Of a stretch of DNA of 64,000 nucleotides, positions 6,845-64,000 are shown piece after piece. A program made the position numbers and the translations under genes. Numbering within the stretch: the stretch's first letter is position 1; every line of letters begins with the position of its first letter. The stretch is from the NCBI GenBank assembly GCA_965231095.1, contig OZ246416.1, forward strand, positions 603,549 to 667,548, in the 5' to 3' direction. The notes below the pieces were generated by a model. It saw nothing but the letters and a program-made list of their open reading frames with translations, was not told the origin of the DNA and ran no database searches. Source of the stretch: an uncultured Gammaproteobacteria bacterium (GTDB lineage: Bacteria > Patescibacteriota > Patescibacteriia > XYB2-FULL-38-15).

Positions 6845-7948
6845 CTAAACACGCTGCTCTAGCTCTCTCCAGCTATTTTCTATATAATTTTTTATTTTTT
6901 CCTTAAAGGCGCCCACATCAAACTGCGCCGCGTGCGCCCGAATTTCTTCCGGATTATATTCTTCCGGCTTGAATCTGATAATCGTATGCGCGAGCGACTC
7001 CCAGCTCTGATCCGGAAAAAAAGTTCCGGTTTTCCCCTCCACCACCGTTTCCGCCGCCCCACCCTTTGGGTAAGCAATCACCGGCCGCCCGGAAGCCATG
7101 GCCTCAATCACCATTAATCCAAAATCTTCTTCCTGCGGATGGACAAAGGCAATACACTTTCCATATAATTCCCTTTTCTCAACGTCCGAAATTTTTCCCA
7201 AAAATTCAATGTTAGCCTTTGCCATTTCTTTCAATTTTTCAAGTTCCGGACCCTCTCCAAAAATTTTTAAAGGAACGCCAAGTTTATTAAAAGCCTGAAT
7301 TACAAGATCAAATCTCTTATAAGGAACAAGCCGCCCGCCGGCCAAGTAATACCTTTTTTGCGCTTCAGAAATTTTAAATTGTGAAACGTCAACCGGCGGA
7401 TAAATTACGTCGCTGTCCTTTCCATAATATTTAGAAATTCTTTTTTGCACGGTTTTTGAATTGGCGATAAATTTATCAACCCGCTCGGCCGCCATCCTAT
7501 CCCACATTCTAAGGCGCGGCAGCATCAATGACACCGCCCTTTTTACAAGCGACCCATGCGATAATTCTTTTATATAAAGATGCGTGTCGGTCCAAAGATA
7601 TCTTGTCGGCGTATGGCAATAACAAATATGCAGCGCGTCCGGCCGCGTAATTACGCCCTTGGAAAGCGCGCTTGAGTTTGAAAGAACAACATCATAACCG
7701 TCAAGTTCATGCTTTTCCGTAGCAAGCGGCATCAGAGGCAAAAACCATTTAAAATTTTTTACTCCGCCGGGAATTTTTTGAATAAAAGATGTTTTAACAT
7801 TTTTCCCGTCAAACTCCTTGCCCATTTTTTTCTTATCATAAACCAGGGAGTAAAGCGGAGCCTCCGGAAAAATTTCTCGGAAAACCCTAAGCACTCTTTC
7901 CGCCCCTCCGTCTTGCGTCAAGTGATCGTGGACTAAAGCGATTTTCAT
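6845..7948 (-). CDS. Glycosyltransferase family 4.
   Basis: 367 aa. MKIALVHDHL..., with EDFGLMVIEAMASGRPVIAYPKGGAAETVVEGKTGTFF. Confidence 0.8.
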   Translation of the reverse strand: MKIALVHDHLTQDGGAERVLRVFREIFPEAPLYSLVYDKKKMGKEFDGKNVKTSFIQKIPGGVKNFKWFLPLMPLATEKHELDGYDVVLSNSSALSKGVITRPDALHICYCHTPTRYLWTDTHLYIKELSHGSLVKRAVSLMLPRLRMWDRMAAERVDKFIANSKTVQKRISKYYGKDSDVIYPPVDVSQFKISEAQKRYYLAGGRLVPYKRFDLVIQAFNKLGVPLKIFGEGPELEKLKEMAKANIEFLGKISDVEKRELYGKCIAFVHPQEEDFGLMVIEAMASGRPVIAYPKGGAAETVVEGKTGTFFPDQSWESLAHTIIRFKPEEYNPEEIRAHAAQFDVGAFKEKIKNYIENSWRELEQRV

Positions 7949-7965
7949 ACTGAGTCTACTGAATT

Positions 7966-9378
7966 TTATTTTGCTCCTTTCCCAAAAAACACTACGAGCG
8001 GCGTTTTAAACAAAATATATAAATCAAGCTTCAATGACCAATTTTCAATGTAGTACGCGTCAATTTTCACCTCTTCTTCAAAATCAAGATCGGCGCGACC
8101 GGAGATCTGGGCGAGCCCGGTAATGCCCGGCCTCACAATCAAAACTTTTTTATGATGTTTTTTATATCTTGCCACTTCCTCCGGCAAATGCGGCCGCGGA
8201 CCGACCAAGCTCATCTTGCCGGTCAAAACTAAAAAGAATTCCGGCAGTTCATCAATGCTAAAGCGTCGGATAAATTTTCCCACGCGCGTCACCCGCGGAT
8301 CATCTTTAATTTTAACCAACGGCCCTTTTCTAAAATCTTGCTCGGCCAACTCGGTATAGCGCAAATTGTGAGTCCCTGGCTTCATGGACCGAAATTTAAA
8401 ATAATGAAACGGCTCGCCGTGCTGTCCAACTCTTTGAACTGCCGAGCCATCGTCCAATTTACTCCAAAAAATCGGGCCGCGAGAATCCAGCTTGATAGCA
8501 ATGGCCGTAAGGATCATAATCGGCGACGCGAGGATTATTAAAATCAAAGAACCAACAATATCAAAAATCCTTTTATAAACTCTTCCCCATCCTTCAAGCC
8601 GAGTTCTTTTAACTTCCGCCACCGGCACGCCGGCGTAATCGCGGATATCAATTTTTGCCGCTTGCACGGAAAAAATGTCGGCCGAATATTTAAAGACAAG
8701 ATGATGTTCGTTGCAAAAATCTATCAAGCTCAAAGTTTCTTCTCGGCTCGCTCCGCCTTGCGATAGAATTATTTCATCAACTCCAACCGCCCGGCTGATT
8801 TCTTCCAATTCTTTCGCCGCCGCGTCGTCAAATTTTTTATATCGCTTGATAACTTTTAAACCAAGCCCGGAGTTTTTAAAAAATTCATTAACCAAAATGT
8901 CAGCGGCCCGATCTTCGCCGATGATCACAACTCGGTGGACACCAACGCCTCGGCGGAAAAGCGCCCGTTGGATAAAGCGAACTGCCAGCCGGCCAAAACT
9001 CACAAAAATAATCGCGAAAATCCAGGCGGCCAAAATTATAAATCGGGAAGAAAATAATTCTCGGTTAAAAAAAACTAAAACAATGATAGCGGCAAGGCCC
9101 GCGGAACAGGCGACAAAAATTTTTGTGAGTTCATCTAAAATCCGCCGCGTACCGCCAATCGTGTAAAGCCCGGTTAAAGCAAAAATAACAAGCCAAATAA
9201 CAGCCATGCTTGCCGCGATATTCAAAAAATTCCAAAAAGGCATTTCGTAAATTACCGGACTAAATTGCGCCAAGGTTTGGAATCTTAAAAAATAAGCAGC
9301 CAGGGCTGCCAAAATAAGCATTATAAAATCCAGCGGAACTAAAATTACGGAAAAAATTAATTCTGATTTTTTGAGCAT
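7966..9378 (-). CDS. Polyprenyl-phosphate sugar phosphotransferase (WbaP/CpsE-like priming glycosyltransferase, bacterial sugar transferase family).
   Basis: 470 aa. It has N-terminal TM helices and a C-terminal domain with KRIFDIVGSLILIIL...DSRGPIFWSKL...FKFRSM...MSLVGPRPHLPEEV...GITGLAQISGR. Confidence 0.85.
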   Translation of the reverse strand: MLKKSELIFSVILVPLDFIMLILAALAAYFLRFQTLAQFSPVIYEMPFWNFLNIAASMAVIWLVIFALTGLYTIGGTRRILDELTKIFVACSAGLAAIIVLVFFNRELFSSRFIILAAWIFAIIFVSFGRLAVRFIQRALFRRGVGVHRVVIIGEDRAADILVNEFFKNSGLGLKVIKRYKKFDDAAAKELEEISRAVGVDEIILSQGGASREETLSLIDFCNEHHLVFKYSADIFSVQAAKIDIRDYAGVPVAEVKRTRLEGWGRVYKRIFDIVGSLILIILASPIMILTAIAIKLDSRGPIFWSKLDDGSAVQRVGQHGEPFHYFKFRSMKPGTHNLRYTELAEQDFRKGPLVKIKDDPRVTRVGKFIRRFSIDELPEFFLVLTGKMSLVGPRPHLPEEVARYKKHHKKVLIVRPGITGLAQISGRADLDFEEEVKIDAYYIENWSLKLDLYILFKTPLVVFFGKGAK

Positions 9379-9411
9379 ATATATTAGGTAACAAATGTGA
9401 TCCCCTAAAAT

Positions 9412-9846
9412 TTACCCGAGTAACTATAAGCCGGATTCTGTATCTCGCAGTGATGCGAGACGGTAATCATCTATCTAGGATTTTGATTGCTCAAAATCTC
9501 GAGCGGCTATTTTTGGCCTTGCACCGGATAGGTGTTTTCCACGGCGCCTGTCACCAGGCTGTCCCGCGTGAGCTCTTACCTCACGATTTCAACCTTACCT
9601 CCGCCTTTCGGCGGATCGGCGGTGTATTTTCTGTTGCACTGTCCGTGGGCTTCATTAATTGATGTTCGATTAAGCTCTATCCGCCGCGTAAACGGCAAAT
9701 ATAGCACAAACAACAAAACTTACTCCCCGTCGCTGTTAGCGACTATCTCTCTTTCGGCTTTATGCCGAAACGGTGTCCGGACTTTCCTCTCTCTTTTCCC
9801 CGATTTTAAACGGAAAAATGAGAGCGATTACCCATTACTCGGATAA
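9412..9846 (-). ncRNA. rnpB: RNase P RNA, bacterial type.
   Basis: The minus strand carries the universally conserved P4 elements GAGAGGAAAGTCCGGAC (5' region) and ACAGAATCCGGCTTAT (3' region). The 5' and 3' ends can pair as P1 (CCGAGTAA / TTACTCGG). No protein ORF is present. Confidence 0.7.
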
Positions 9847-10045
9847 ATTTTAAGGTACCAAGTTGATATATTAAGATATCATAATTTTCCTATCTTGTCA
9901 ATGCTCATGTGAGCAATAACCTCCCCGCAACCGCTTTAATTTTCAATTATCAATTTACAATTATCAATCAAGTCCTAATTTTCCAATTTCCAGTTTTGAA
10001 CATTAAGTCATTTGAAAATTGATCCTTGGAAATTGAAAATTATTT

Positions 10046-11026
10046 TTACCCCAACCCTGTTTTCTTTTTTACTTCCGCCAGGGTTTCGGCGGCCAACTTT
10101 CTCGCCCGCGCCGCCCCGGCTTCTAAAATTTTTTGAACCTTTTTCGGATTCTTTTCTAGTTCTTTTCTTTTTTTACGGAAGTCTGCAAATTCGTCGGCGA
10201 TATTTTTGGCCAAAATCTTTTTACAATCAAGACAGCCAAACTTCGCATGGCGACAGGAATCCGCGACCATTTTTATCTGTTCGGGTAAGGACATTATTTT
10301 ATGCAAACTGTAGATATTGCAAATTTCTGGCGTACCCGGATCAGTCGCTCGCTTTCTCGCTGGATCTGTCACGGCTGGGGCTAATTTTTTCCAAATTTCC
10401 TCTGGCGTGTCGGAGAGTATTATTCCCCCGCCGCCCGTTTTACTCATTTTTTTTGTCGGATCATCCAAGGACATTATTCTTGCCCCCTCGGAGAGCGCTT
10501 CTTTTGGCAAAGGAAAAGTTTTGCCAAACATTTTGTTAAATCGATTGGCAATTTCTCGCGCCAGTTCAATGTGTGGCAATTGATCCTCGCCAACCGGCAC
10601 AATATTTGATTTATAAATCAAAATATCCGCGGCCATCAAAACCGGATACGATAAAAGTCCAAGATTTACATATTCCGGATGAAGCGCAATTTTTTCTTTG
10701 AAAGTCGGCACGCGCTCCAACCACGACACTGGCGTAATTGTTCCCAAAATCCAGGCGAGTTCGGTGTGCTCGGGCACGTGCGATTGGACAATCAGCGTAC
10801 TTTTTTTCGGATCAATCCCGGCCGCCAAATAATCCAGCACCACCTCGTATTTTTCCTTCATCATTTCTTTCGGATCATAAGGCGTGGTCATGCCATGATA
10901 GTCAACCACGGCAAAAATACAATCAGCTTCATCCTGAAGTTTTAACCAGTTTTCAATCGCGCCAAAATAATTGCCGATGTGCAATCTGCCGCTTGGCCTT
11001 ATGCCTGAAAAAACGCGTGGTTTCAT
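10046..11026 (-). CDS. trpS: Tryptophan--tRNA ligase.
   Basis: 326 aa. Class I HIGH motif (PSGRLHIGNYFGA) and a KMSKS-like KMSKT. Size and N-terminus (MKPRVFSGIRPSG) are typical of TrpRS. Confidence 0.88.
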   Translation of the reverse strand: MKPRVFSGIRPSGRLHIGNYFGAIENWLKLQDEADCIFAVVDYHGMTTPYDPKEMMKEKYEVVLDYLAAGIDPKKSTLIVQSHVPEHTELAWILGTITPVSWLERVPTFKEKIALHPEYVNLGLLSYPVLMAADILIYKSNIVPVGEDQLPHIELAREIANRFNKMFGKTFPLPKEALSEGARIMSLDDPTKKMSKTGGGGIILSDTPEEIWKKLAPAVTDPARKRATDPGTPEICNIYSLHKIMSLPEQIKMVADSCRHAKFGCLDCKKILAKNIADEFADFRKKRKELEKNPKKVQKILEAGAARARKLAAETLAEVKKKTGLG

Positions 11027-27212: not shown

Positions 27213-27242
27213 AGTTTTCGTTATAGAATACTATCCCTCGTA

Positions 27243-27282
27243 TGGGCGTGGATGGACTCGAACCATCGACCCCGGCTTTATA
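27243..27282 (-). repeat. Exact 40-nt duplicate of the 3' half of tRNA-Ile(UAU), from the anticodon loop to the 3' end.
   Basis: 27243-27282 is identical to 27359-27398, the intact tRNA 115 bp away. It diverges exactly at the anticodon loop. Confidence 0.6.
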
Positions 27283-27358
27283 GCGGCAACCTTCATCTTA
27301 AAAAAATTTAGGTAGTTGCCGATATATCAATGACTACATTATAATCTTATTCCTCGGG

Positions 27359-27432
27359 TGGGCGTGGATGGACTCGAACCATCGACCCCGGCTTTATAAG
27401 AGCCGTGCTCTAACCGGCTGAGCTACACGCCC
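27359..27432 (-). tRNA. tRNA-Ile (anticodon UAU).
   Basis: Minus strand: GGGCGTG-TA-GCTC-AGCCGGTTA-GAGC-A-CGGCT-CTTATAA-AGCCG-GGGTC-GATGG-TTCGAGT-CCATC-CACGCCC-A. The anticodon loop reads cuUAUaa. Confidence 0.8.
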
Positions 27433-27465
27433 CCCCGAGAAATATATTCATTTTTGAAAAGTCAT

Positions 27466-27548
27466 CGCTATAAGAACCGTGCTCTAACCCGCCTCGATGA
27501 GCCGAAGCCCATCTTCGGCGAGGCGGGCCGACTCTAAGCTAGCCACCC
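27466..27548 (-). repeat. tRNA-derived 5' fragment or pseudo-tRNA. Acceptor and D-arm-like sequence interrupted by a 40-nt hairpin, ending at a cuUAUa anticodon-like loop.
   Basis: Minus strand: GGGTGGCTAGCTTAGAGTCGG-[CCCGCCTCGCCGAAGATGGGCTTCGGCTCATCGAGGCGG]-GTTAGAGCACGGTTCTTATAGCG. It is similar to the 5' half of tRNA-Ile, but no matching 3' half is present. Confidence 0.4.
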
Positions 27549-27751
27549 ACAATTTATTTAAATCATAGCGGAAAAGGGATATTTTTTCAAGCCTAAAATC
27601 CCAGGCCGACTCGGCGAGTTTTTTATTTTCAAATTACCAATTACCCTTTACCATTTACCAATTACCAATTTTTTGTAATTGACTTTTTTATCTTTTTAAA
27701 ATAAACTCATACGAGGGCTATATTCCCGAAATCATGGAAGGAGGAAGAGGG

Positions 27752-28222
27752 ATGGAAGAGGGAAAACCAAAAAAAACGTGCAGCGATGCTCCGGTTTGGT
27801 GGCACCCGAACGGAATGATGATGCGACCGATGTCGGGATACCAAGAGCACAAGCTCCAAATCTTTAGCGACAGAGCCGTTCTTACGATCAGCCCCGCCGA
27901 AGATCCCCGCGAACACAACATCTGGCTTCTCGACTGGAAAATCACCCGCATCTCGGCTTTCACTATCAGCGTCAAGCTCAAAATCCCGGAAAAAATTCTC
28001 CGCCATGCCTTCGCTCTTGATGACGGACCATACGAATCCGATGAATGGCTACTCAAACACTACGGCGCCGATGCGGCAGAGCGAGGATATTACGTCCGCG
28101 CCGGAAATTACCTGAATATTCCCGGCCCGGGCACCGGCCACGACGGAGATTCAAATATCTCCATCTTCCTGCGCCCCGATATCAAGGAGGCAGTACGCCA
28201 GCTCCTCGAGCTGCTTCGGTAA
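27752..28222 (+). CDS. Hypothetical protein, encoded in a GC-rich islet.
   Basis: 156-162 aa ORF with locally elevated GC. A strong SD (GGAAGGAGGAAGAGGG) lies 7 nt before the ATG at 27752; the alternative ATG is at 27734. It is followed by a terminator. Confidence 0.5.
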   Translation: MEEGKPKKTCSDAPVWWHPNGMMMRPMSGYQEHKLQIFSDRAVLTISPAEDPREHNIWLLDWKITRISAFTISVKLKIPEKILRHAFALDDGPYESDEWLLKHYGADAAERGYYVRAGNYLNIPGPGTGHDGDSNISIFLRPDIKEAVRQLLELLR

Positions 28223-28261
28223 ACTTTCCCGCCCGGCTGGCTTCGGCCGACTCGGACGGCT

Positions 28262-28296
28262 CCCACACTCTTCACTGAAGTGTGGGATTTTTTTTA
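28262..28296 (+). terminator. Rho-independent terminator.
   Basis: CCCACACTCTTCACTGAAGTGTGGG followed by TTTTTTTT. Confidence 0.6.
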
Positions 28297-28386
28297 ATTA
28301 CCATTTACTGATTACTAGTTACTTAAATATCTTACTCTTGACATAAAAATAAAATTATTGTTTTATTACTTTATAAGGAGGAACAA

Positions 28387-28656
28387 ATGAGCGCTCGCCA
28401 AAAAAAGAAGCAGGCGCTAAAGAGTGCCCGTCCGGAGTGGTGGGAACGTCCCACTTTTTACATTTCCTCCTCCGGCTCCTGGGAAAACGCCACGAAGAAA
28501 TCACGCGTGGAGTTGGTCCTCCCCGATGCCACGAAAGTTGATCTCGGCTATTTCTCTGCGGCGGTAAATTCCGACGAACTCCGTCGCGAGGTGGCGGAAA
28601 AATTCAGAGAAATCTGGGACCCGACAAAACGCTGCCGGCGGACACCGAAACCTTAG
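28387..28656 (+). CDS. Hypothetical 89-aa protein (GC-rich islet).
   Basis: A strong SD (TAAGGAGGAACAA) precedes the ATG. Moderately GC-rich. Followed by a terminator. Confidence 0.5.
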   Translation: MSARQKKKQALKSARPEWWERPTFYISSSGSWENATKKSRVELVLPDATKVDLGYFSAAVNSDELRREVAEKFREIWDPTKRCRRTPKP

Positions 28657-28696
28657 CCCGCGTTTGTTTTTTAAAGAAACAACGCGGGATTTTTTA
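28657..28696 (+). terminator. Rho-independent terminator.
   Basis: CCCGCGTTTGTTT...AAACAACGCGGG hairpin followed by TTTTTT. Confidence 0.55.
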
Positions 28697-29009
28697 TTTA
28701 TTTGTTTAAATTTTCTAGGCTTTTGCCGTTGAAAATTTATCTACAAATAATTAACCCCTTCACTAATTTTATTTTATGTTTTTCCGACAATTAATATTTT
28801 AAAATGAAAAAAATATTTTTTCTATTAACAATATTTTCTAAAATTAGTGAAGGGGTTCTCGATTTTCCAAATTCGCTGCGCTCACGGAAAATCGGAAGTT
28901 ATCCACATCTTTGCCCTTTTTTCCTTGTTGACAACAAAAAAGTGCTGTATAATAAAGTTATATTTAAAAAATTTTCATTTTATCTTTTCCAAGAAGGAGG
29001 TGAACCAAC

Positions 29010-29093
29010 ATGGCAAAAAAGAAAGCAAAAAAGAAAGTCGCGAAAAGAAAACCAGCAAAAAAACGAAAAGCGACTAAGAAAAAACGAAGATAA
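29010..29093 (+). CDS. Candidate 27-aa Lys-rich peptide (MAKKKAKKKVAKRKPAKKRKATKKKRR).
   Basis: A perfect SD (GAAGGAGGTG) lies 8 nt upstream of the ATG at 29010, and a strong terminator follows immediately. The ORF is below the 60-aa track cut-off. Confidence 0.4.
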   Translation: MAKKKAKKKVAKRKPAKKRKATKKKRR

Positions 29094-29104
29094 CGTTTAA
29101 AAAA

Positions 29105-29137
29105 CTTCTCCTGCGTGCGCACGGAGAAGTTTTTTTT
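29105..29137 (+). terminator. Rho-independent terminator.
   Basis: CTTCTCC-tgcgtgcgca-GGAGAAG followed by TTTTTTTT. Confidence 0.6.
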
Positions 29138-29225
29138 ATTAATTTTCCCGCGAAGACGAGTCGGGAACGAAGTCCGAGCGGCTGAAAATTAATAACCCCG
29201 CATTCATTGCGGGGTTTTCTCTTTT

Positions 29226-31387: not shown

Positions 31388-31497
<110 letters not shown>

Positions 31498-31548
31498 TCA
31501 AGCTAAAAACGCTTGAAATTTATTTTTGTATGTTTGCACAATTCTTGT

Positions 31549-34555
<3,007 letters not shown>

Positions 34556-34916
34556 ACAAGAATTGTTAAAACATACATTTTACAATTCTCATTTACTTTT
34601 TTGGTTCTCTTTCTTATGTTGGGTATTAAGATGCTCTTTTATTCAATTGTCAACGAACAATTTTTTTCTGTTTCTCGCCTCTCGTTTTATTTAGAGACCA
34701 GAGGCGGGAGCAAAAAATAATTTTAAATTTTTGGAAAAAGGACTAAAAAACCGCTCTTTCCGAGCGGCTTGGTACGACCAAAAAATAGGTTAGCCACTCG
34801 GGAACTTATAAGTTAAAACTTGTTTTACCATATTTTGCCCAATATCAGAGAAAAATTGTCAGGTGTAACTCTGGATAAAATGTGGACAACTTCCTCCGTT
34901 TTCTTAGTACATTAGT

Positions 34917-34945: not shown

Positions 34946-35058
34946 GGGGAATTTTTTATTTTCTCTCCCTTGCGGTCTTTCGCGTTTTTGCGTAATAAAA
35001 AAGTGGGTTGCCCGAAAGCTTCCCACTTGTCCCTCCATATTTTTCTAACGGCTCGCCG

Positions 35059-35271
35059 TCAGCTCCGCAGACTCTTGAACCAGCGGGCGATTCGCCCCAA
35101 GACGACCACGGCCACGAGAGCGACCATGACTGTGAGGCCGAACCGGAGTGCGATCCAGTCCTCTGTCCCGCAGATGAGCGCGAAGACAATCGCGGCCGCT
35201 CCTCCGAGCAACGCGACGGTCAGCTCCTTGCCGAGCACCGACCGTTCCTCCCAAAACTCTTTGATCCCCAT
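35059..35271 (-). CDS. Small two-TM membrane protein (70 aa), GC-rich islet.
   Basis: MGIKEFWEERSVLGKELTVALLGGAAAIVFALICGTEDWIALRFGLTVMVALVAVVVLGRIARWFKSLRS. High GC. It is last in the minus-strand islet operon. Confidence 0.45.
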   Translation of the reverse strand: MGIKEFWEERSVLGKELTVALLGGAAAIVFALICGTEDWIALRFGLTVMVALVAVVVLGRIARWFKSLRS

Positions 35272-35287
35272 CCAATCCTCCTCCCTC

Positions 35288-35497
35288 TCAACGCAGGTTG
35301 CGCAACTCCTCGCCGCGCTTCCTCTTCTCGAGCCAGGCCAAAAAGATCGTCAACGCGAGAAGAACGAAGAACCCGATGACGAACGGAACGACGCCTGGCT
35401 GTTTGAGCTTCAACCGGTACAGCCCGATCGCGAGCGAAACGTCCGAGAGAACCGCGGAGATCGTCGCGGCGATAACGAGTCCCCAATTGGGGTTCAT
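35288..35497 (-). CDS. Small two-TM membrane protein (69 aa), GC-rich islet.
   Basis: Internal Met of track ORF 35288..35707: MNPNWGLVIAATISAVLSDVSLAIGLYRLKLKQPGVVPFVIGFFVLLALTIFLAWLEKRKRGEELRNLR. Its start overlaps the upstream stop as ATGA, indicating translational coupling. Confidence 0.45.
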   Translation of the reverse strand: MNPNWGLVIAATISAVLSDVSLAIGLYRLKLKQPGVVPFVIGFFVLLALTIFLAWLEKRKRGEELRNLR

Positions 35498-35799
35498 GTG
35501 CACGTCCTTTCCTCGCCGGCCTGCCGCCGCTTGCCATACCACACCTTGAGATCCGCGCCGTGTTCCCAGTGCTTGGCCAAAGCAACGACCGCCTGGCAGA
35601 GCTGGATGTCCGTGAGGCGAAGGTTGGTCTCGTCCTTCGTCTCCAGGGCGATGTCTCCCATCGCCTCGAATCCGCTCGCGAGCCGCGCTTCCATCCGCAA
35701 AGCCCAACGCTCGGCGAAACGGAGAATCCGCCCCCCGTAACTATCCTCGGGGTTTGCCTCGAGTACCCGCTCCCACTCTCCCTGATTTTTGACTTTCAT
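35494..35799 (-). CDS. Hypothetical 101-aa protein, GC-rich islet.
   Basis: MKVKNQGEWERVLEANPEDSYGGRILRFAERWALRMEARLASGFEAMGDIALE... No recognisable domain. It is coupled to the downstream small membrane proteins. Confidence 0.45.
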   Translation of the reverse strand: MKVKNQGEWERVLEANPEDSYGGRILRFAERWALRMEARLASGFEAMGDIALETKDETNLRLTDIQLCQAVVALAKHWEHGADLKVWYGKRRQAGEERTCT

Positions 35800-35820
35800 T
35801 TTTCTCCTCCCTCCGCCGCG

Positions 35821-36189
35821 CTAACCGCCGGCGAGCAGACGCCTGACTTCCTCCGGCAATTTTTCCTTGCCGTTGATTTCAAAAGTACAACCGGCCTCCA
35901 CCATCATGTGCCGGAATTTCCCGTCGCTCGACATAGCAATCACCGTACCGCCGAAGGTCAAACGAAGCTCGTCAATGAGCGGCAATGTGTCGGGCTTGTT
36001 GCCCGGGACACGACGCAAGCAACCATCCAGAGCAACAATCCGAACGTCGGGATGTTCCGAGAAGAGCCGCCTTGCTTCTTCGACCGTACGAGCCTGCAGA
36101 AGCGTAGCCCAACCCGCAAACTCGCGGACAAAGTACGACTGCCACGCCGAATGATCCTCTACCACGAGTACTTTTGGAAGCCCACTCAT
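35821..36189 (-). CDS. Receiver (REC/CheY)-like domain protein, atypical (ED instead of DD acidic pair).
   Basis: MSGLPKVLVVEDHSAWQ...ARTVEEARRLFSEHPDVRIVALDGCL...TVIAMSSDGK... has a receiver-like alpha/beta pattern. A strong SD (GGGGAGGAAGAAGGAGGG) precedes the ATG, and a promoter-like TTGACA/TATAAT region lies at 36243-36258. GC-rich. Confidence 0.45.
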   Translation of the reverse strand: MSGLPKVLVVEDHSAWQSYFVREFAGWATLLQARTVEEARRLFSEHPDVRIVALDGCLRRVPGNKPDTLPLIDELRLTFGGTVIAMSSDGKFRHMMVEAGCTFEINGKEKLPEEVRRLLAGG

Positions 36190-36290: not shown

Positions 36291-36319
36291 ATGCCCGGGG
36301 TGGGACTCGAAGCGCCCTG
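36291..36319 (-). repeat. tRNA-like 3' fragment (T-loop/acceptor-like ...CTTCGAGTCCCACCCCGGGCA).
   Basis: Its acceptor 3' strand CCCGGGC is exactly complementary to the 5' fragment at 36533-36553. No intact cloverleaf. Confidence 0.3.
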
Positions 36320-36532: not shown

Positions 36533-36553
36533 ATACCAGTTCCGCCACCCGGG
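36533..36553 (-). repeat. tRNA-Leu-like 5' fragment (GCCCGGGTGGCGGAACTGGTA).
   Basis: 21 nt matching the acceptor/D-arm of a class II Leu tRNA. Hairpins follow instead of the remaining tRNA. Confidence 0.35.
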
Positions 36554-36639
36554 CATAAATTTTATTTCGGCAAAAAATTTGCTAAAATTAAACTGTAGTA
36601 TAATCTTAATTTATTTTTAACCAAAAATCAAGGAGGGCT

Positions 36640-40196: not shown

Positions 40197-40508
40197 TTAC
40201 CAATCGGGTTTGGACGATCCGCCGCAGCGATCGCACTTGCTTCCACTCCCTCGCCCCATATCCACCCTGCAATCGTCGCAGAAGGCGTGAATTTCCACCT
40301 TGTAACCCTTGCCGTCGCAGGCGGAACACTCAATGTACACCGAACCCCCACGACCCGAACCATCACATCGACCGCAGACCTTTTCCCCACCGAAAAAACC
40401 TTGCTTCCAACCCTTGCCGTCGCAGGCGGAACAACGCCCGTCGTGAGAAAATTTCTGCCCGCTTCCTCCGCAATTCTCGCACTCTACACGCGCCGTGTCC
40501 TTTGACAT
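40197..40508 (-). CDS. Small Cys-rich protein with DnaJ-type CxxCxGxG zinc-finger repeats (103 aa), GC-rich islet.
   Basis: CENCGGSG, CSACDGKG, CGRCDGSG, CSACDGKG, CDDC, CDRCGGS. A strong SD (GGGGAGGATACAAAGC) precedes the ATG. High GC. A terminator hairpin lies downstream. Confidence 0.5.
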   Translation of the reverse strand: MSKDTARVECENCGGSGQKFSHDGRCSACDGKGWKQGFFGGEKVCGRCDGSGRGGSVYIECSACDGKGYKVEIHAFCDDCRVDMGRGSGSKCDRCGGSSKPDW

Positions 40509-40622: not shown

Positions 40623-40694
40623 GCGGGCGTCGTATAGTGGCTATTATGTGTCCTTGCCAAGGACAAGACGGCAGTTCGATTCTGCTCGCCCGCT
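40623..40694 (+). tRNA. tRNA-Gly (anticodon GCC).
   Basis: GCGGGCG...TGTCC-TTGCCAA-GGACA...GGCAG-TTCGATT-CTGCT-CGCCCGC-T, closely similar to canonical bacterial tRNA-Gly(GCC). Confidence 0.8.
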
Positions 40695-40864
40695 TATTGG
40701 TCGGAACTTTCATCAAGGTCTCAACGGCTTTTCTAAATTCAATTTTTTAACAAAAGCAGAAGCGAACTGGGAAGGGGTCGGGAAACGGGAGTTTCCCGAT
40801 TTGCGGAAATATTAAAACCGCAGGGTTTTAAAACGCAGTCCTGCCGAGGCAGGACGAGTAGTGA

Positions 40865-40893
40865 GATTCTCTCCGCCCGCTTATTGTTCGGAA
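40865..40893 (+). repeat. Degenerate direct repeat of the tRNA-Gly 3' end plus its downstream flank (GATTCTCTCCGCCCGCTTATTGTTCGGAA vs GATTCTGCTCGCCCGCTTATTGGTCGGAA).
   Basis: About 25/29 identity to 40677-40705, which is 170 bp upstream. This is an att-site-like scar. Confidence 0.4.
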
Positions 40894-40937
40894 ATCATTA
40901 AAGACCTTCGGGTCTTTTTTTGGTATAATAAGATAAT

Positions 40938-43001: not shown

Positions 43002-43214
43002 ATGAGCGACTCACGAGAACTTTCGGTTGAAGAAGCTCAGGGCCCCTGCGGCGATAGTCGTCACCGTTGGCGATTCGCTAACCCTCCGCAATACCGATGG
43101 AATACGCGCCAGGTTCTTGCCGAATGTACAAATTGCCACGGCACCTACTGGGCTCAACTCTCACCCGAAAAATGGCAACGGTTTCTGATGTATCTGGGAG
43201 CAAGCAGAAAATAG
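43002..43214 (+). CDS. Hypothetical 70-aa protein with Cys/His zinc-ribbon-like spacing (GC-rich islet).
   Basis: SD AAAGGAGGAG lies 6 nt upstream. ...GPCGDSRHRW...CTNCHGTYW. High GC. Confidence 0.45.
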   Translation: MSDSRELSVEEAQGPCGDSRHRWRFANPPQYRWNTRQVLAECTNCHGTYWAQLSPEKWQRFLMYLGASRK

Positions 43215-43232
43215 GCGGCAGAGGAGGGCTGT

Positions 43233-43484
43233 ATGGAGAACGAAACGCTGACCTTTTCTGACCTCGAACCAGGACAGAACTTCGCTGTTCTGCCTGGCAA
43301 GGGATATAGTCGCCGGCGGGACGGCGACTGGCTCCGGGCGAGTAACCTCTTCTTGAGAGTCGCGAATCCGAACGGCAACGCCTTGCGAACCTGCGACAAC
43401 GAGATCTTCAAGATTCCCGACTCCGTACCCGTGATCCGAGTGAACATCAGCGGCAAAGCCGCTAGAAGAAGGAGGGGGAGATGA
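43233..43484 (+). CDS. Hypothetical 83-aa protein (GC-rich islet).
   Basis: SD GAGGAGGG lies upstream. Its stop overlaps the next start (ATGA). Confidence 0.45.
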   Translation: MENETLTFSDLEPGQNFAVLPGKGYSRRRDGDWLRASNLFLRVANPNGNALRTCDNEIFKIPDSVPVIRVNISGKAARRRRGR

Positions 43485-43963
43485 GTGCTAGTGAACCCGT
43501 GAAGCCAGAACAGACGGTCTGCGAGAAGAACGTAGACGTCCCGACTCTTCTGGTCGAACCTCTCTCGGCATCGAGTCGGCCGATCCGAGAAACTTTCGTC
43601 CAATGGTTTGGCCGGGCGAACGGCGCGGATCTCGGAGAAAGACAGTTCCGTTTCCCTGTGCCGCTACACCACGCAGACCGGCACTGGGAGGGGAATCCTC
43701 TGTTTTGGAAGGTTACTTTTCTCGGTACATTCCAAAAGTTTCCTTGGAATCCCCGGTCCAGGGAAATATACCGTGAAATCGCACCGTTTAGAGATAACCC
43801 TGACGCCGAAATCTTGGTCGCTCACCTTCGCGAACCAAGACACCCCGAAGATCCTGAACTGGACTCTTTCGGCCTCATGATCCCGATGACGACTCACCTG
43901 ACAGACTCCGCGTACGGGATCATCGCGCCACGAGAGTACCGCGACAGGACTATTTTTCCATAG
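43481..43963 (+). CDS. Hypothetical 160-aa protein (GC-rich islet).
   Basis: SD AGGAGGGGGAG lies upstream, and the gene is translationally coupled to the preceding one. No recognisable domain. Confidence 0.45.
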   Translation: MSASEPVKPEQTVCEKNVDVPTLLVEPLSASSRPIRETFVQWFGRANGADLGERQFRFPVPLHHADRHWEGNPLFWKVTFLGTFQKFPWNPRSREIYREIAPFRDNPDAEILVAHLREPRHPEDPELDSFGLMIPMTTHLTDSAYGIIAPREYRDRTIFP

Positions 43964-44084
43964 AGGAGGTTCGACAAAAAACAACAGAGCACGACCTGCG
44001 GGTACGGCTCTTTTTTATTGCTTTTTTATTCTACTTCTTCTAAGATAGCCAGATCGTTCCTTGAAAAAAGGAGGAAAGATAAAA

Positions 44085-45152
44085 ATGGATCACGAACTTG
44101 CTTCGTGCCAGAATGTCCTAGCCGATCGCGCAACGCGAGACGAAGACGCCAGACGGCGTTATCCCGAGTCCGAGGACGATGATGGTTGGCTCATGGATCC
44201 CTCGAACGTTGTCTCGCCCTATCTAATTGATGTTTCAAAGATCATGAACTGCCGGGCGCTACGGCGAGGGGGCGACAAAACCCAGGTCCGACCACTTGAG
44301 CCGAACACACACATCCGGCGGCGCCTTTCCCATTCGCTCGGCGTAGCGGGACTTGCTGTGCCGGTCGCCAAATTACTTGGTCTCCACCCCGATCTCACGC
44401 ACGCCGCGGGTCTTGGCCATGACATAGGCCACACCCCTTTCGGTCACACGGGCGAAGTCACCCTCTCTCGGCTTTCCGGAAAAAAAATCTGCCACGAAAT
44501 TCTAGGTGTCGTCATCGCTCAAAAAGTGGAACGCCGCGGCCGCGGTTTAAACCTCACACACCAGACACTTCTCTGTCTCCGGGATCACTCGCGCGGCGAC
44601 GGCCAGTTTGGCACCGAAACGTGCGAGTCGGAAGAGAGCGCCCTCGCCATGCACACCGACAAGATTGACTACTTCTGGGCCGACTATCACGACGTCTTTG
44701 AACGGGGTGATTGTTTGAACCCATCGGACTATCCCGAACTGGTCGGACTAGCCCAGTGGTTCGGCAAGGGATATCGCTCACGTACGGCAAAATGCCTTCG
44801 GGCGCTCTGTCTTGAATCAAAGGCGGCCGGCCGGATTTCTTTCGGGCTGTGCGAAGAGGCGATGCGGCTCACTCGAGTCAAGGAAATCATGTACGGAAAA
44901 ATCTACAACGTCGTGAACCGCCGGACGGAAATCATTTCCTTGATCGAGAGAGTCTATCGGGCGCTTGAGAAAATCGCACCCCACCTCGATCCCGTGTTCT
45001 TCATCGCGCTCTTGGGTGACCAAGAACTTCTTGGTCTCGCAAAAAAAGACAACCTTTCGCCTGCCGACCTTGCCGGCCTCTCGGCCACGGAGATTCTTGC
45101 GAACCTCAAGGAGACGAAGCTCGACCTCACGAACCCTGACTTGGGGTGGTGA
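44085..45152 (+). CDS. dGTPase-like deoxynucleoside triphosphate triphosphohydrolase (HD-domain phosphohydrolase).
   Basis: SD AAAGGAGGAAAG lies upstream of the ATG at 44085. HD-domain motifs: IRRRLSHSLGVAGLA (LTHSLEV-like) and HDIGHTPFGHTGE (HDxGHxPFGH). GC-rich. Confidence 0.6.
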   Translation: MDHELASCQNVLADRATRDEDARRRYPESEDDDGWLMDPSNVVSPYLIDVSKIMNCRALRRGGDKTQVRPLEPNTHIRRRLSHSLGVAGLAVPVAKLLGLHPDLTHAAGLGHDIGHTPFGHTGEVTLSRLSGKKICHEILGVVIAQKVERRGRGLNLTHQTLLCLRDHSRGDGQFGTETCESEESALAMHTDKIDYFWADYHDVFERGDCLNPSDYPELVGLAQWFGKGYRSRTAKCLRALCLESKAAGRISFGLCEEAMRLTRVKEIMYGKIYNVVNRRTEIISLIERVYRALEKIAPHLDPVFFIALLGDQELLGLAKKDNLSPADLAGLSATEILANLKETKLDLTNPDLGW

Positions 45153-45243
45153 GTAGCCTTGGTCCATAACCGTCCCAGGAGAAATGGGGCGGTTTTTTTA
45201 TTGCCAAAAAGGGAGAAATAAGATAAAATTGGAGAATAAAAAT

Positions 45244-46266
45244 ATGCCTGACGAAAGAATTGTCACCCCAAAAGAACAAAATGAAGACCAAGCGTTTGAC
45301 GCGACGCTCCGGCCGAAAGTTTTGGCTGAATATATTGGCCAAGAACAGATTAAAAAAAATCTGGAAATTTTTATTTCCGCGGCGAAAAAAAGAAAAGAGC
45401 CGATTGAACATGTCCTGCTTTACGGCTGTCCCGGCCTTGGGAAAACAACTTTGGCCCACGTCATCTCAAATGAAATGGGCGCCCAGATCCGCATCACTTC
45501 CGGTCCGGCGATTGAGCGCGCCGGCGACCTGGCGGCAATTCTCACCAATCTCGGTGAAGGCGATATTTTGTTTATTGATGAAATCCATCGTCTGAATAAA
45601 GTGATCGAAGAAGTTTTATACCCGGCCATGGAAGAATACGCATTGGATCTGGTAATTGGAAAAGGGCCGGGGGCGAGAACCGTGCGGCTCGATTTACCGC
45701 GCTTCACAATTATCGGCGCCACGACAAAAGTCAGCATGATTTCCTCGCCGCTCCGCGACCGCTTTGGCGCGACCTATCATTTAAACTTTTATGAAGACGC
45801 GGACATTGGAAAAATTATTAACCGTAGCGCCAAAATTTTAAATATAAAAATTGATGAGGGCGCCATAGAGCTTCTCGCGAGCCGCGCCCGAAAAACTCCG
45901 CGCGTCGCAAACCGTATTTTAAAACGCGTCCGCGATTACGCTGAAGTGAAAGCTGATGGTATAATAACAATAGAGCTCGCTGAAGTTGCCTTAAAAAACT
46001 TGGGGGTTGACCAATTCGGCTTGGATCAAATTGACCGCCGAATCCTTGAATCAATTATTAAAAAATTCCAGGGCGGCCCGGTCGGCCTGAACACCCTTTC
46101 GGCGGCAACCGGCGAAGAACAAGCCACGATTGAAGAAGTTTATGAGCCATATCTTTTGCAACTTGGATTTTTAAACCGCACCCCGCGAGGCCGAGTGGCG
46201 ACCGAGACGGCGTACAAACATCTCGGGATTGCTCCGCCGCAAAATTTACAAGAAAAATTAGTTTAA
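45244..46266 (+). CDS. ruvB: Holliday junction branch-migration helicase RuvB.
   Basis: [54 protein letters not shown]... (AAA+ Walker A), sensor and winged-helix C-terminus. The start was chosen at MPDERIV (45244) rather than the track start at 45184. Confidence 0.9.
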
Positions 46267-52013: not shown

Positions 52014-52769
52014 ATGGAAACCAAGCTGATGGCGATCGTAATCGCCCTTTTCGTGGCGAGCTGCGGACTGGACACCGAAGGCCTGGGCGAACCCGACGAA
52101 GGGACTCTGCCCGAAGCGTCCGACGATACGGAGCCCGACATCGGCCCGGACGAAATCGTGGCCGACGTTCCCGGAGAAGACGCGGCCGAGGAAGACAGCG
52201 GGCATGACGAAGCGACGCCCGAAGAGACGACTGAAGACACCGTTGACTCCACCGAAGATGCTGAGCCGGAAGACGCGGACGACGCCGAAGACGTAGTCGA
52301 CGACGCGGCCGACGAAGGCAGCGAAGCTGACGCGGAAGACGCAGGAACCGAAGATGGCGATGCCGAAGACGGAGCAATCGATCCCTGCGCTCTGCCGGAA
52401 ATTCCGACAACAGGAATCTTCATCTTCTACTGCTTTGACTACGATCTCCTCTCCCCATTCGCGCTGGAATTTCAAATCGAACAAGGGGGCCTTCCGGTTG
52501 TCAGCTGGCGAGGATCGCCCGAGTGCACGTTCACCTCTCGCTCTCGCCGATTCGAATGCACTCTCACCCCGCTCGTCTGGGATGCGACCTACGTCTGGAA
52601 CATCCGGCTTGACCCTGGGGTCGGGATCGGTTGGTCGTGCGGACCAGAACTCCTTGAGATCTGGGGCACGCCACGAGCCTGGCTCAATGGAGTCGAACTG
52701 GCCGTCGACCCGGTGACAAACGGCGACGGCGGCTGCAACCACAGCTTCACGACGCCACCTCCTCCCTAA
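52014..52769 (+). CDS. Acidic putative lipoprotein (GC-rich islet).
   Basis: SD GGAAGGAGGGG lies upstream. Signal peptide with lipobox-like VASC. The Asp/Glu-rich N-terminal half and a Cys-containing C-terminal domain follow. High GC. Confidence 0.5.
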   Translation: METKLMAIVIALFVASCGLDTEGLGEPDEGTLPEASDDTEPDIGPDEIVADVPGEDAAEEDSGHDEATPEETTEDTVDSTEDAEPEDADDAEDVVDDAADEGSEADAEDAGTEDGDAEDGAIDPCALPEIPTTGIFIFYCFDYDLLSPFALEFQIEQGGLPVVSWRGSPECTFTSRSRRFECTLTPLVWDATYVWNIRLDPGVGIGWSCGPELLEIWGTPRAWLNGVELAVDPVTNGDGGCNHSFTTPPPP

Positions 52770-63475: not shown

Positions 63476-63520
63476 TAAAAAAACGGGCGTTCCAGTTTGA
63501 ACTGAAACGCCCTTCCCTCC

Positions 63521-64000
63521 TTACCACGGGTTCCCGATGTTAACCCTTTGTTCCTCCCACCCGACACAGAACAGGTGTTCCGTATCGGACCTCGTGACTG
63601 GCCGATCGAAGTTCGGGGCGAGGTACTCCTCGAACTCGAAGTGGTGCCGCTCACAACCGGTCCGGAGATCGGTCTCGGCGAGCGGGGCGTAGAACTGCCC
63701 CTCGGTGTGCGGCGGCAGAAGTGGCAGACCGGCGTAGAGGTCAGTAAAGGACAGGTCTGCCCCGTCCATCCTGACCCTGACGTACCGATCCTTGTTGTTC
63801 ACGACCCGCACGAGATGCGGACCGCGCCACTGGTTCGGATAACCGTGGCCTTCCACGAAGGCCAAGTCCGGCGGCGGGGGCGGCGGAACGAAGTATCCGC
63901 CGCCGAAGCCGCCACCGTATCCCGAAGCGCCGTAGGCCGCGGGCGGAGTGTAGTTCGGGTAGCCGTAGGCTTGCCCGCCCCAGATGCCGCAGCCAAGCGA
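63521..64000 (-). CDS. Hypothetical GC-rich protein, 5'-partial (continues beyond the window end), with a Gly/Tyr/Pro-rich low-complexity N-terminal region.
   Basis: The minus-strand frame is open from 64000 down to the stop at 63521. It reads ...AYGYPNYTPPAAYGASGYGGGFGGGYFVPPPPPPDLAFVEGHGYPNQWRGPH...HHFEFEEYLAPNFDRPVTRSDTEHLF... GC is about 60%. Confidence 0.4.
   Translation of the reverse strand, partial: SLGCGIWGGQAYGYPNYTPPAAYGASGYGGGFGGGYFVPPPPPPDLAFVEGHGYPNQWRGPHLVRVVNNKDRYVRVRMDGADLSFTDLYAGLPLLPPHTEGQFYAPLAETDLRTGCERHHFEFEEYLAPNFDRPVTRSDTEHLFCVGWEEQRVNIGNPW

Follow-up and report, generated by a model that had tools for sequence, protein, structure and literature searches.

Why does a stretch of Patescibacteria chromosome with 44.8% GC contain six short GC-rich islets, whose genes are led by strong Shine-Dalgarno (SD) sites and closed by terminators of their own, and which mostly lie beside tRNA genes? 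The 64,000-nt stretch in question (contig OZ246416.1, positions 603,549 to 667,548; here called the window) also includes 23S and 5S rRNA genes, RNase P RNA, and six tRNAs. An earlier reading of its letters (the original prediction) had taken the islets for horizontally acquired DNA, brought in by tRNA-targeting recombination, with a high-GC donor such as an actinobacterial host, a phage, or a plasmid as possible sources. Patescibacteria, or candidate phyla radiation (CPR) bacteria, have tiny genomes and few recognizable mobile elements, and for this reason gene gain and exchange in them are poorly known; our literature search found no description of such a pattern in CPR. From composition, translation signals, and comparison with sibling species, we conclude that the islets are probably moron-like accessory cassettes in conserved mini-hotspots, which turn over by recombination at conserved flanks and stem from a GC-richer pool, with amelioration still incomplete.

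Islets differ from the core in composition and translation signals

Calculation of GC, GC content at third codon positions (GC3), and tetranucleotide usage bore out all six predicted GC-raised segments. Core reference windows of 300 bp (n = 169) had a mean GC of 0.434 (standard deviation, 0.048; maximum, 0.533), against 0.516 (27734 to 28656), 0.599, 0.574, 0.553, 0.616, and 0.648 for islets 1 to 6 in order. GC of the islet open reading frames (ORFs) was 0.52 to 0.65. The originally flagged span was the weakest, with 54 to 56% in its ORFs instead of the announced 55 to 60%, and ∼44 to 45% over its whole length. GC3, which like the SD statistics was computed on curated gene starts with 44 core genes for reference, ranged from 0.49 to 0.83 in islet ORFs (mean, 0.667) and was 0.437 in core genes (Mann-Whitney p = 2e-7). 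Tetranucleotide usage, normalized for GC, correlated between islets and core at 0.51 ± 0.11, compared with 0.83 ± 0.05 within the core, and islet proteins showed an excess of R, D, E, W, C, H, and P and a deficit of I, K, F, Y, and N. Adjoining core genes showed no GC3 gradient toward the islets, i.e., the compositional edges are sharp; regional GC-biased gene conversion was rejected on this ground.

When 5 nt or more had to agree with AAGGAGGTGA between −20 and −4, SD sites preceded 12/12 complete islet ORFs and 4 of the 44 core genes (Fisher p = 3e-9). The contrast that had been proposed therefore stands, but the genome is not SD-less, since two other genes, one for a poly-Lys peptide and one for a 1168-aa LTD protein, have perfect SDs. 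In many core genes (e.g., that of PolX; also the starts at 40938 and at 10046 to 11026, minus strand), a TATAAT box ends 7 to 9 nt before the ATG and no SD is present, a spacing that suggests widespread leaderless mRNAs in this lineage. The 16S rRNA was absent from the window and from every locus retrieved, so that SD function was judged by the conserved SD of the poly-Lys gene alone.

By direct reading, each islet unit has a TTGACA-type promoter, an SD, and a terminator consisting of a hairpin and a T-run, which agrees with the private terminators that had been claimed; a simple scanner recovered only some of these signals. A tRNA lies 114 to 324 bp away from five of the six islets, as had been predicted, and the tRNA fragments noted earlier are real. 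By our own calculation, the random chance of such proximity for five of six points is ∼7e-6. A link between tRNAs and codon usage was rejected, because the adjacent tRNAs decode GC-rich and AT-rich codons alike without a pattern. GC-rich structured RNAs were likewise discarded as candidates: Rfam scans at gathering and E-value thresholds yielded only tRNA, rRNA, and RNase P, and the ratio of nonsynonymous to synonymous substitutions per site (dN/dS) of the ORFs was below 1.

Cassettes recur in the same slots of sibling species

Searches with the PolX and PHP-domain proteins retrieved metagenome-assembled genomes (MAGs) labeled Patescibacteria. Sibling species (among them L002, L003, L009, L011, L012, L013, L015, L017, L018, L091, and L096) were 78 to 94% identical in these proteins and came from independent assemblies. 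Slots were compared by blastn and by slot-by-slot reading of ORFs. Conserved slots were found between the poly-Lys gene and tRNA-Ile, between the 23S leader and tRNA-Leu(UAG), between the LTD gene and tRNA-Gly, between tRNA-Leu(UAA) and ruvB, and upstream of tRNA-Ser. The search for the same islets in sibling genomes, which the original prediction had recommended, was positive: the corresponding slots of L002, L003, L009, L013, L091, and L096 were GC-rich and held SD-led cassettes. Their content differed in a combinatorial manner, cassette families being present, absent, or reordered depending on the species.

Between the window and its siblings, core genes had dS values of 0.65 to 1.9 and dN values of 0.02 to 0.25. 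Islet orthologues had dS values of 0.6 to 2.0 and dN values of 0.10 to 0.58, above those of the core, with dN/dS between 0.1 and 0.5 (<1 in every islet family tested), while GC3 stayed at 0.5 to 0.8. The encoded proteins are real but fast-evolving. Since islet dS is as saturated as that of the core, most cassettes are not recent arrivals, and the idea of many recent tiny acquisitions had to be abandoned: most cassettes are common to siblings at the same slot, at dS 0.6 to 2.

Recent exchange was nonetheless evident at ruvB. Here, a 1.35-kb tract of 96 to 99% sliding identity common to the window and L003 (∼44000 to ∼45350, plus strand) comprises the cassette of an HD-domain protein and the first ∼170 bp of ruvB, with 82 to 88% identity outside it. 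The HD gene had a dS of 0.07 and 97% amino acid identity, compared with a core dS of 0.65 to 1.03 for this pair. Because the tract is far more similar than the flanking core, it reflects recent recombination between species; at least one cassette has thus been recently exchanged, with recombination ending within ruvB. The first 50 codons of ruvB, which fall within the tract, had a GC3 of 0.42. In the 89-aa family of islet 1, identity was uncoupled from core identity (rho = −0.43), the closest partner (73%) being that of L017, which is among the most distant siblings by core genes. The ruvB slot of L091 also contains pyrF, phosphoribosyltransferase (PRT), and AIR-synthase-related (Pfam AIRS) genes with GC3 of 0.88 to 0.90; the pyrF and PRT pair has a GC3 of 0.69 in another sibling, L101, and its neighbor in L102, a CPR genome outside this group, is a large serine recombinase. 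Distant CPR relatives had no high-GC3 ORFs at the same locus and generally made little use of SDs. Taken together, atypical composition, sharp edges, patchy occurrence and varying cassette order among siblings, the HD tract, an 89-aa tree decoupled from the core, and nearby tRNA-derived direct repeats sustain the central proposal of the original prediction, in that the islets behave like horizontally mobile accessory DNA.

In L002, an insertion of 3 kb with normal GC (6982 to 10000) separates PolX from a small element at tRNA-Gly (see below). It carries a sortase-like gene and a gene for a 595-aa surface protein, and a ∼30-nt repeat of the terminator/−10 region is found on both sides. Accessory DNA of this clade is therefore not all GC-rich.

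Slot S1 contains two self-contained cassettes

In the span originally flagged, 27.72 to 29.14 kb, the GC-rich part ends at ∼28.69 kb. Slot S1 is anchored by tRNA-Ile(UAU) (27357 to 27432, minus strand; 72.8 bits). A partial copy of this tRNA on the same strand (27224 to 27282), consisting of its 3′ half from the anticodon and the 3′ flank, forms a 59-nt direct repeat with 27340 to 27398. The repeat is 90% identical over 59 nt, of which 40 nt of tRNA sequence match exactly, and the duplication is absent from L011. On the other side lies a diverged copy of the 5′ part (27465 to 27545, minus strand; 92% over 24 nt), whose D-loop region is interrupted by a GC hairpin of 38 nt; its acceptor sequence differs, and it is partly kept in L012, L013, and L017.

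The first cassette is served by TTACCAWTTAC repeats and, after them, a promoter-like TTGACT-17-TAAACT (27634 to 27707, plus strand). The SD GGAAGGAGGAAG and a 156-aa ORF follow on the same strand (27738 to 28222, ATG at 27752; GC, 0.54; GC3, 0.63), and an intrinsic terminator, CCCACACT...AGTGTGGG plus T8, closes the unit (28262 to 28295, plus strand). The 156-aa family is widespread, and its structure model has a Whirly/PUR/MRP-like fold. The terminator hairpin module of this cassette also closes cassettes in L011, L015, and L018. The second cassette (28338 to 28656, plus strand) consists of a −35 TTGACA, the SD TAAGGAGGA, and an 89-aa ORF (28387 to 28656; GC, 0.56; GC3, 0.63), with an intrinsic terminator (28657 to 28697, plus strand) at which the GC-rich islet really ends. 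Its product belongs to an orphan family restricted to the clade (24 proteins, all ∼89 aa), and ORF, own promoter, and TATAAGGAGG are retained together in six siblings.

Among siblings, S1 holds the 89-aa gene in six and the 156-aa gene in two cases; other families, of 147, 134, 113, and 71 aa, stand in their place or beside them. Labeled by letter, the cassette orders were A-B, A-C-F, C, A-E, A-C, A-B-D, C-A-B, and A-D, in a single orientation throughout. Tandem TTACCAWTTAC repeats occur at 27634 to 27665 and 28298 to 28308, just 5′ of the −35 box of either cassette, and in L015 at 3574 to 3598, ahead of the −35 box of the 156-aa orthologue; the motif has 11 matches in the window versus 2.2 expected and may be an operator or UP-like element. 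A recombination site common to the cassettes was considered and rejected, as neither the CCACAC...GTGTGG hairpin nor the TTACCAWTTAC motif is shared beyond slot S1.

Downstream of the islet, the stretch from 28.70 to 29.0 kb has 17 to 30% GC. This AT-rich spacer contains an imperfect 48-nt palindrome (28753 to 28857; 75% complementary, 9-nt center). Beyond it, and outside the islet, lies a small gene with the SD AAGGAGGTGA, its own promoter, and a terminator (28994 to 29137, plus strand), which encodes a 27-aa Lys/Arg peptide (29010 to 29093). The peptide, MAKKKAKKKVAKRKPAKKRKATKKKRR, consists almost only of Lys, Arg, and Ala and may bind ribosomes or the nucleoid. The original prediction had counted it as cargo. 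However, the gene is AT-rich (GC, 0.32), and it is kept with its perfect extended SD in 8/8 siblings examined (22 to 33 aa), which identifies it as a core gene. Conservation of this SD also indicates that the clade evidently uses SD pairing.

Predicted cargo of the other islets

All 13 islet ORFs were scanned with Pfam, and 10 of these also with PHROGs and NCBIfam. Islet 2 is a four-gene operon on the minus strand (35059 to 36189; terminator at ∼34990 to 35030) with orthologues in L002, L003, L009, and L013. It encodes a 122-aa divergent receiver-like protein (35821 to 36189), a 101-aa Tad4-family protein (35494 to 35799), and two 70-aa membrane proteins (35288 to 35497 and 35059 to 35271), all on that strand. 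The 101-aa protein matched Tad4 (PF25186) with 68.2 bits (cutoff, 25), its residues 1 to 93 covering profile positions 1 to 95 of 113, as well as phrog_9822; full-length relatives with 32 to 38% identity occur in Bacillus, Mycobacterium, Listeria, and Xanthomonas phages. Tad4, which inhibits type I Thoeris, is described as a protein that occupies the NAD-processing site of a TIR effector and so blocks it (10.64898/2026.01.28.702374). By these profile matches, the 101-aa protein is a Tad4-family member and a predicted TIR inhibitor. The receiver domain ascribed to the 122-aa protein was weakly supported: PF00072 gave no match at E < 0.1, and PDB profile matches to response regulators were weak (E, 0.008 to 0.9) and confined to the first half, although E11, D12, D55, S87, and K108 were invariant in four orthologues. 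It is at best a putative divergent receiver domain.

Islet 3 encodes a 103-aa Cys-rich protein with CxxCxGxG repeats (40197 to 40508, minus strand; own SD and promoter), whose PF00684 match (E, 8e-7) fell below the cutoff. Only the window has this gene; L002, L003, and L009 lack it, and slot content differs from sibling to sibling. In L009, slot S3 is a near-empty 186 bp, and slot S4 lacks the stretch corresponding to 43210 to 45268. In islet 4, unit 1 (43002 to 43963, plus strand) contains ORFs for a 70-aa Cys/His protein (43002 to 43214), an 83-aa protein (43233 to 43484), and a 160-aa protein (43481 to 43963), with an SD on each and a terminator at ∼43985 to 44018; orthologues were found in L003 and L009 (70 aa), L091 (83 aa), and L002 (160 aa). 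Unit 2 (44085 to 45152, plus strand; own SD; terminator at 45168 to 45200) encodes the 355-aa HD-domain dNTP-triphosphohydrolase-like protein exchanged with L003. It matched PF01966 (E, 3e-12), has the H..HD..D metal motif, and shows an invariant GHD(I/M)GH in the family alignment. The PADLOC dGTPase model aligned with E = 3e-28 to residues 24 to 167, i.e., only the N-terminal half, and the protein fell below all NCBIfam cutoffs (best model, 130.6 versus 393 bits; TIGR01353, 88 versus 152). Its 339 homologues come from Patescibacteria and DPANN, and in L003, L091, and L096, too, the gene lies directly upstream of ruvB.

Islet 5 (52014 to 52769, plus strand) encodes a 251-aa acidic lipoprotein under its own promoter, SD, and terminator, with the lipobox VASC, a D/E-rich linker, and a Cys-containing C-terminal domain; orthologues in L002, L003, L009, L091, and L096 had GC3 of 0.64 to 0.78 and dN/dS of 0.14 to 0.29. 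Islet 6 holds a Gly/Pro-rich ORF of which the window includes only the 3′ part (63521 to 64000, minus strand; GC, 0.65; GC3, 0.80; terminator at ∼63478 to 63515); it matched no family in the Pfam scan. Judged by these sequence features, the predicted cargo is of the conflict or surface type: a dNTPase-like HD protein, a Tad4-like TIR inhibitor, receiver-like and small membrane proteins, putative small Zn-binding proteins, an acidic lipoprotein, and a Whirly-fold protein.

tRNA fragments and other RNA genes of the window

Two other tRNA loci carry tRNA-derived pieces. Pieces of another tRNA-Leu, a 5′ fragment (36534 to 36555) and a 3′ fragment (36291 to 36311), flank the intact tRNA-Leu(UAG). 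Their acceptor halves are complementary to each other, as though ∼220 bp bearing the working gene had split a tRNA-Leu gene. Just 3′ of tRNA-Gly(GCC), an element of ∼165 nt (40706 to 40894) is bounded by 29-nt direct repeats of the tRNA 3′ end and flank (40677 to 40705 and 40866 to 40894). Copies are present in L002 (6815 to 6948), L003 (9815 to 9948), L101 (3366 to 3480), and L094 (4603 to 4740), and the site is empty in L009. Within its ∼70-nt core, a stretch of 23 nt is identical in a distant CPR genome and the remainder is near-identical; the distant copy, too, stands behind a tRNA, though a different one, whose 3′ end is repeated where the element stops. Three hairpins make up the consensus fold, compensatory changes being present in one of them, and no Rfam match was obtained. 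The element may be either a miniature tRNA-targeting integrative element or a novel tRNA-linked RNA. As for the remaining RNA genes, the 23S and 5S rRNA genes (31388 to 34557) have neither a 16S gene nor spacer tRNAs in the window and thus form an unlinked rRNA operon, and a class A RNase P RNA of 433 nt is encoded at 9411 to 9843.

Origin and turnover of the cassettes

In the scenario that we consider probable, self-contained cassettes, in which a sigma-70-type promoter and an intrinsic terminator frame one to four GC-rich ORFs with a strong SD, would fill a few permissive intergenic slots by stand-alone tRNA genes and the 23S promoter across a Patescibacteria clade. Turnover would be mainly by homologous or homology-facilitated recombination, with the most conserved flanks (tRNA, rRNA leader, and ruvB) as anchors, whereas tRNA-targeting site-specific integration might contribute occasionally and leave tRNA-derived direct repeats behind. 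The cassettes would derive from a GC-richer gene pool circulating among Patescibacteria and their mobile elements and would be partly ameliorated. They may carry SDs because their mRNAs are leadered, monocistronic, and GC-rich, core genes being leaderless or having AU-rich leaders.

As to the source, searches with the HD, 156-aa, 89-aa, and pyrF families gave no support for an actinobacterial donor, which was therefore rejected: the closest relatives of the HD and 156-aa proteins and of the sibling pyrF (GC3, 0.9) were in Patescibacteria, DPANN, or unlabeled CPR-like contigs, and the 89-aa family is restricted to the clade. A phage source fits the Tad4-like protein, the only one with phage relatives, but is not supported in general. 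Scans of IMG/VR with the 156-, 89-, and 122-aa families and the Tad4-like family found nothing, the HD protein retrieved only remote dGTPases there (29 to 39% identity), and tblastn of the 156-aa protein against INPHARED gave no match. Nor does an SD by itself mark foreign DNA, as had been supposed, since members of the 156-aa family that have native GC, in other CPR genomes, are SD-led as well.

Several observations weigh against this scenario. Promoters and spacers within the islets have 17 to 34% GC and are AT-rich like host intergenic DNA, which would be odd for DNA imported wholesale from a genome of 60 to 65% GC. In tetranucleotide usage, one half of the islet set resembles the other only slightly more than the host (0.62 versus 0.51), and a single source is therefore unlikely. 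For most cassettes, dS between siblings is saturated and GC3 nonetheless remains at 0.5 to 0.8, which would need very GC-rich ancestors (∼0.9), repeated replacement, or a GC-maintaining force. No GC-rich donor was found, the nearest out-of-clade relatives of the HD and 156-aa proteins having the native GC of 37 to 45% GC genomes, and sampled GC-rich Parcubacteria make little use of SDs. The tRNA-derived repeats enclose 57 to 165 nt of other sequence rather than GC-rich cassettes, and Pfam, PHROGs, and NCBIfam revealed no integrase or transposase in or beside any islet of the window, the rest of which was not exhaustively scanned. As a rough estimate of our own, a GC3 of ∼0.9 at the start would leave ∼0.6 after 0.75 substitutions per site and lineage, so that very GC-rich imports, the pyrF block for instance, could have been ameliorated slowly.

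Some of these observations would be expected if the islets were not foreign at all but old, vertically inherited resident genes, whose GC and SDs are kept by selection (for mRNA structure or stability, or for a translation regime of their own that depends on SDs) or by GC-biased gene conversion in a compartment prone to recombination. Orthologues do occupy the same slots in species with a core dS of 0.65 to 1.9, with islet dS equally saturated and GC3 at 0.5 to 0.8 in every lineage, and the HD gene remains directly upstream of ruvB even where its protein is just 60 to 66% identical. Elsewhere in CPR, the 156-aa and HD families are nothing out of the ordinary, and the former has its SD there, too; islet promoters are host-like, and the SD route is functional to judge from the poly-Lys gene. 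Yet GC3 does not spill into neighboring core gene ends even in the HD tract, where the start of ruvB stays at core level (0.42), and distribution is patchy, with cassettes reordered. GC3 moreover varies between orthologues (0.88 versus 0.69 for pyrF; 0.50 to 0.70 in the 147-aa family), which looks like decay from different starts rather than equilibrium, the SD-led small genes of other CPR genomes are not GC-rich, and no mechanism is known to lift GC3 by 20 to 45 points gene by gene. We therefore regard long-term residence as rather unlikely. Quite unlikely, in our view, is that the islets are remnants of larger tRNA-targeting islands or prophages that lost their mobility genes and left "moron" cargo behind. 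Tempting as this is, given the tRNA next to five of the six islets, the duplicated tRNA-Ile 3′ half, the fragments of a second tRNA-Leu around tRNA-Leu(UAG), the tRNA-Gly element with its 29-nt repeats, met again behind another tRNA of a distant CPR genome, the Tad4-like gene of a phage family, and the serine recombinase beside pyrF and PRT in L102, neither the islets of the window nor those of inspected siblings contain an integrase, transposase, or phage structural gene. Nearby tRNA-derived direct repeats do speak for the proposed tRNA-targeting recombination, but they do not bracket the cassettes, and islets 2 and 3 are located 5′ of their tRNAs. Five independent decays to 0.3 to 2.2 kb within 36 kb would be unparsimonious, and IMG/VR lacks relatives of the 156-, 89-, and 122-aa families and of the clade's Tad4-like family.

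An artifact, be it chimeric assembly, contaminant fragments, or GC-rich noncoding RNA genes misread as ORFs, is hardly credible. The source is a MAG, and GC-rich DNA does give spurious ORFs in several frames, but cassettes and junctions recur in more than 10 independent assemblies from different samples, which excludes chimerism and with it the mis-assembly considered in the original prediction. The exact HD and 89-aa proteins were found in NCBI, ENA, and Logan assemblies; dN/dS below 1, Pfam and PHROG matches, and an AlphaFold2 (AF2) model with a pLDDT of 91 argue for genuine proteins, and no Rfam family falls within the islets. A bolder and very unlikely idea is a two-compartment genome, in which a leaderless or AU-leader, AT-rich core and separately regulated, SD-dependent, GC-rich cassettes are kept distinct in composition and initiation signal on purpose. 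If this were true, GC and SD would be a functional label rather than a fossil of transfer; e.g., genes for conflict or host interaction might be translated only in certain ribosomal or physiological states, or might evade AT-directed silencing or nucleases.

If, as we think probable, the islets are accessory cassettes in conserved mini-hotspots, the gene flexibility of these CPR bacteria would sit beside tRNA and rRNA genes in the form of single-gene units exchanged between species. Their defense, anti-defense, surface, and orphan genes would be the likeliest mediators of interaction with hosts and phages, and GC3 and SD together would provide a simple marker of the accessory compartment in these genomes. 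Two gene classes that differ in GC3 and initiation signal and persist across species with saturated synonymous sites also offer a clean natural test of amelioration versus maintained composition.

Comparison with known systems

Slot S1 resembles an integron array in that its small single-gene units all point the same way but vary in order and content; many units encode orphan proteins. In contrast to integrons, neither intI or attI nor an attC-like site common to the slots was seen by repeat comparison and islet ORF scans, although no dedicated attC/intI search was made, and every islet unit comes with a promoter and a terminator, whereas a promoter is usually missing from integron cassettes. 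With tRNA-linked genomic islands the islets share atypical GC and codon usage, tRNA adjacency, sporadic occurrence among relatives, and tRNA-derived repeats nearby, but they lack an integrase, are 1 to 2 orders of magnitude smaller, are not delimited by the repeats, and in some cases lie on the 5′ side of the tRNA.

It is established that chromosomes have hotspots of horizontal gene transfer which are free of mobile genetic elements (MGE) and gain their diversity through recombination at the core genes on either side (Oliveira et al. 2017, PMC5635113). There, too, accessory genes are concentrated in few intervals between core genes, turn over fast, often have defense functions, and lack an integrase, and hotspots are often adjacent to tRNA or rRNA genes; recombination at flanking core genes has its counterpart here in the HD-ruvB tract. 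The islets differ in being miniature (0.3 to 2.2 kb with one to four genes, on a source contig of 0.89 Mb [886 kb]), in that their genes each form a promoter-SD-terminator unit, and in that composition and translation signal define a distinct class persisting across species. These units recall the moron as defined for phages, i.e., a single coding region with its own promoter and terminator, situated between genes that are adjacent in relatives, and of deviating composition (PMC4378225). Islets and phage morons alike are predicted autonomous transcription units, are inserted between genes adjacent in related genomes, and differ from their neighbors in composition, and the way of acquisition is established for neither. 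Unlike phage morons, however, the islets reside in a cellular chromosome, flanked by PolX, ruvB, the CCA-adding enzyme, 23S rRNA, and tRNAs, and several of them are conserved across species.

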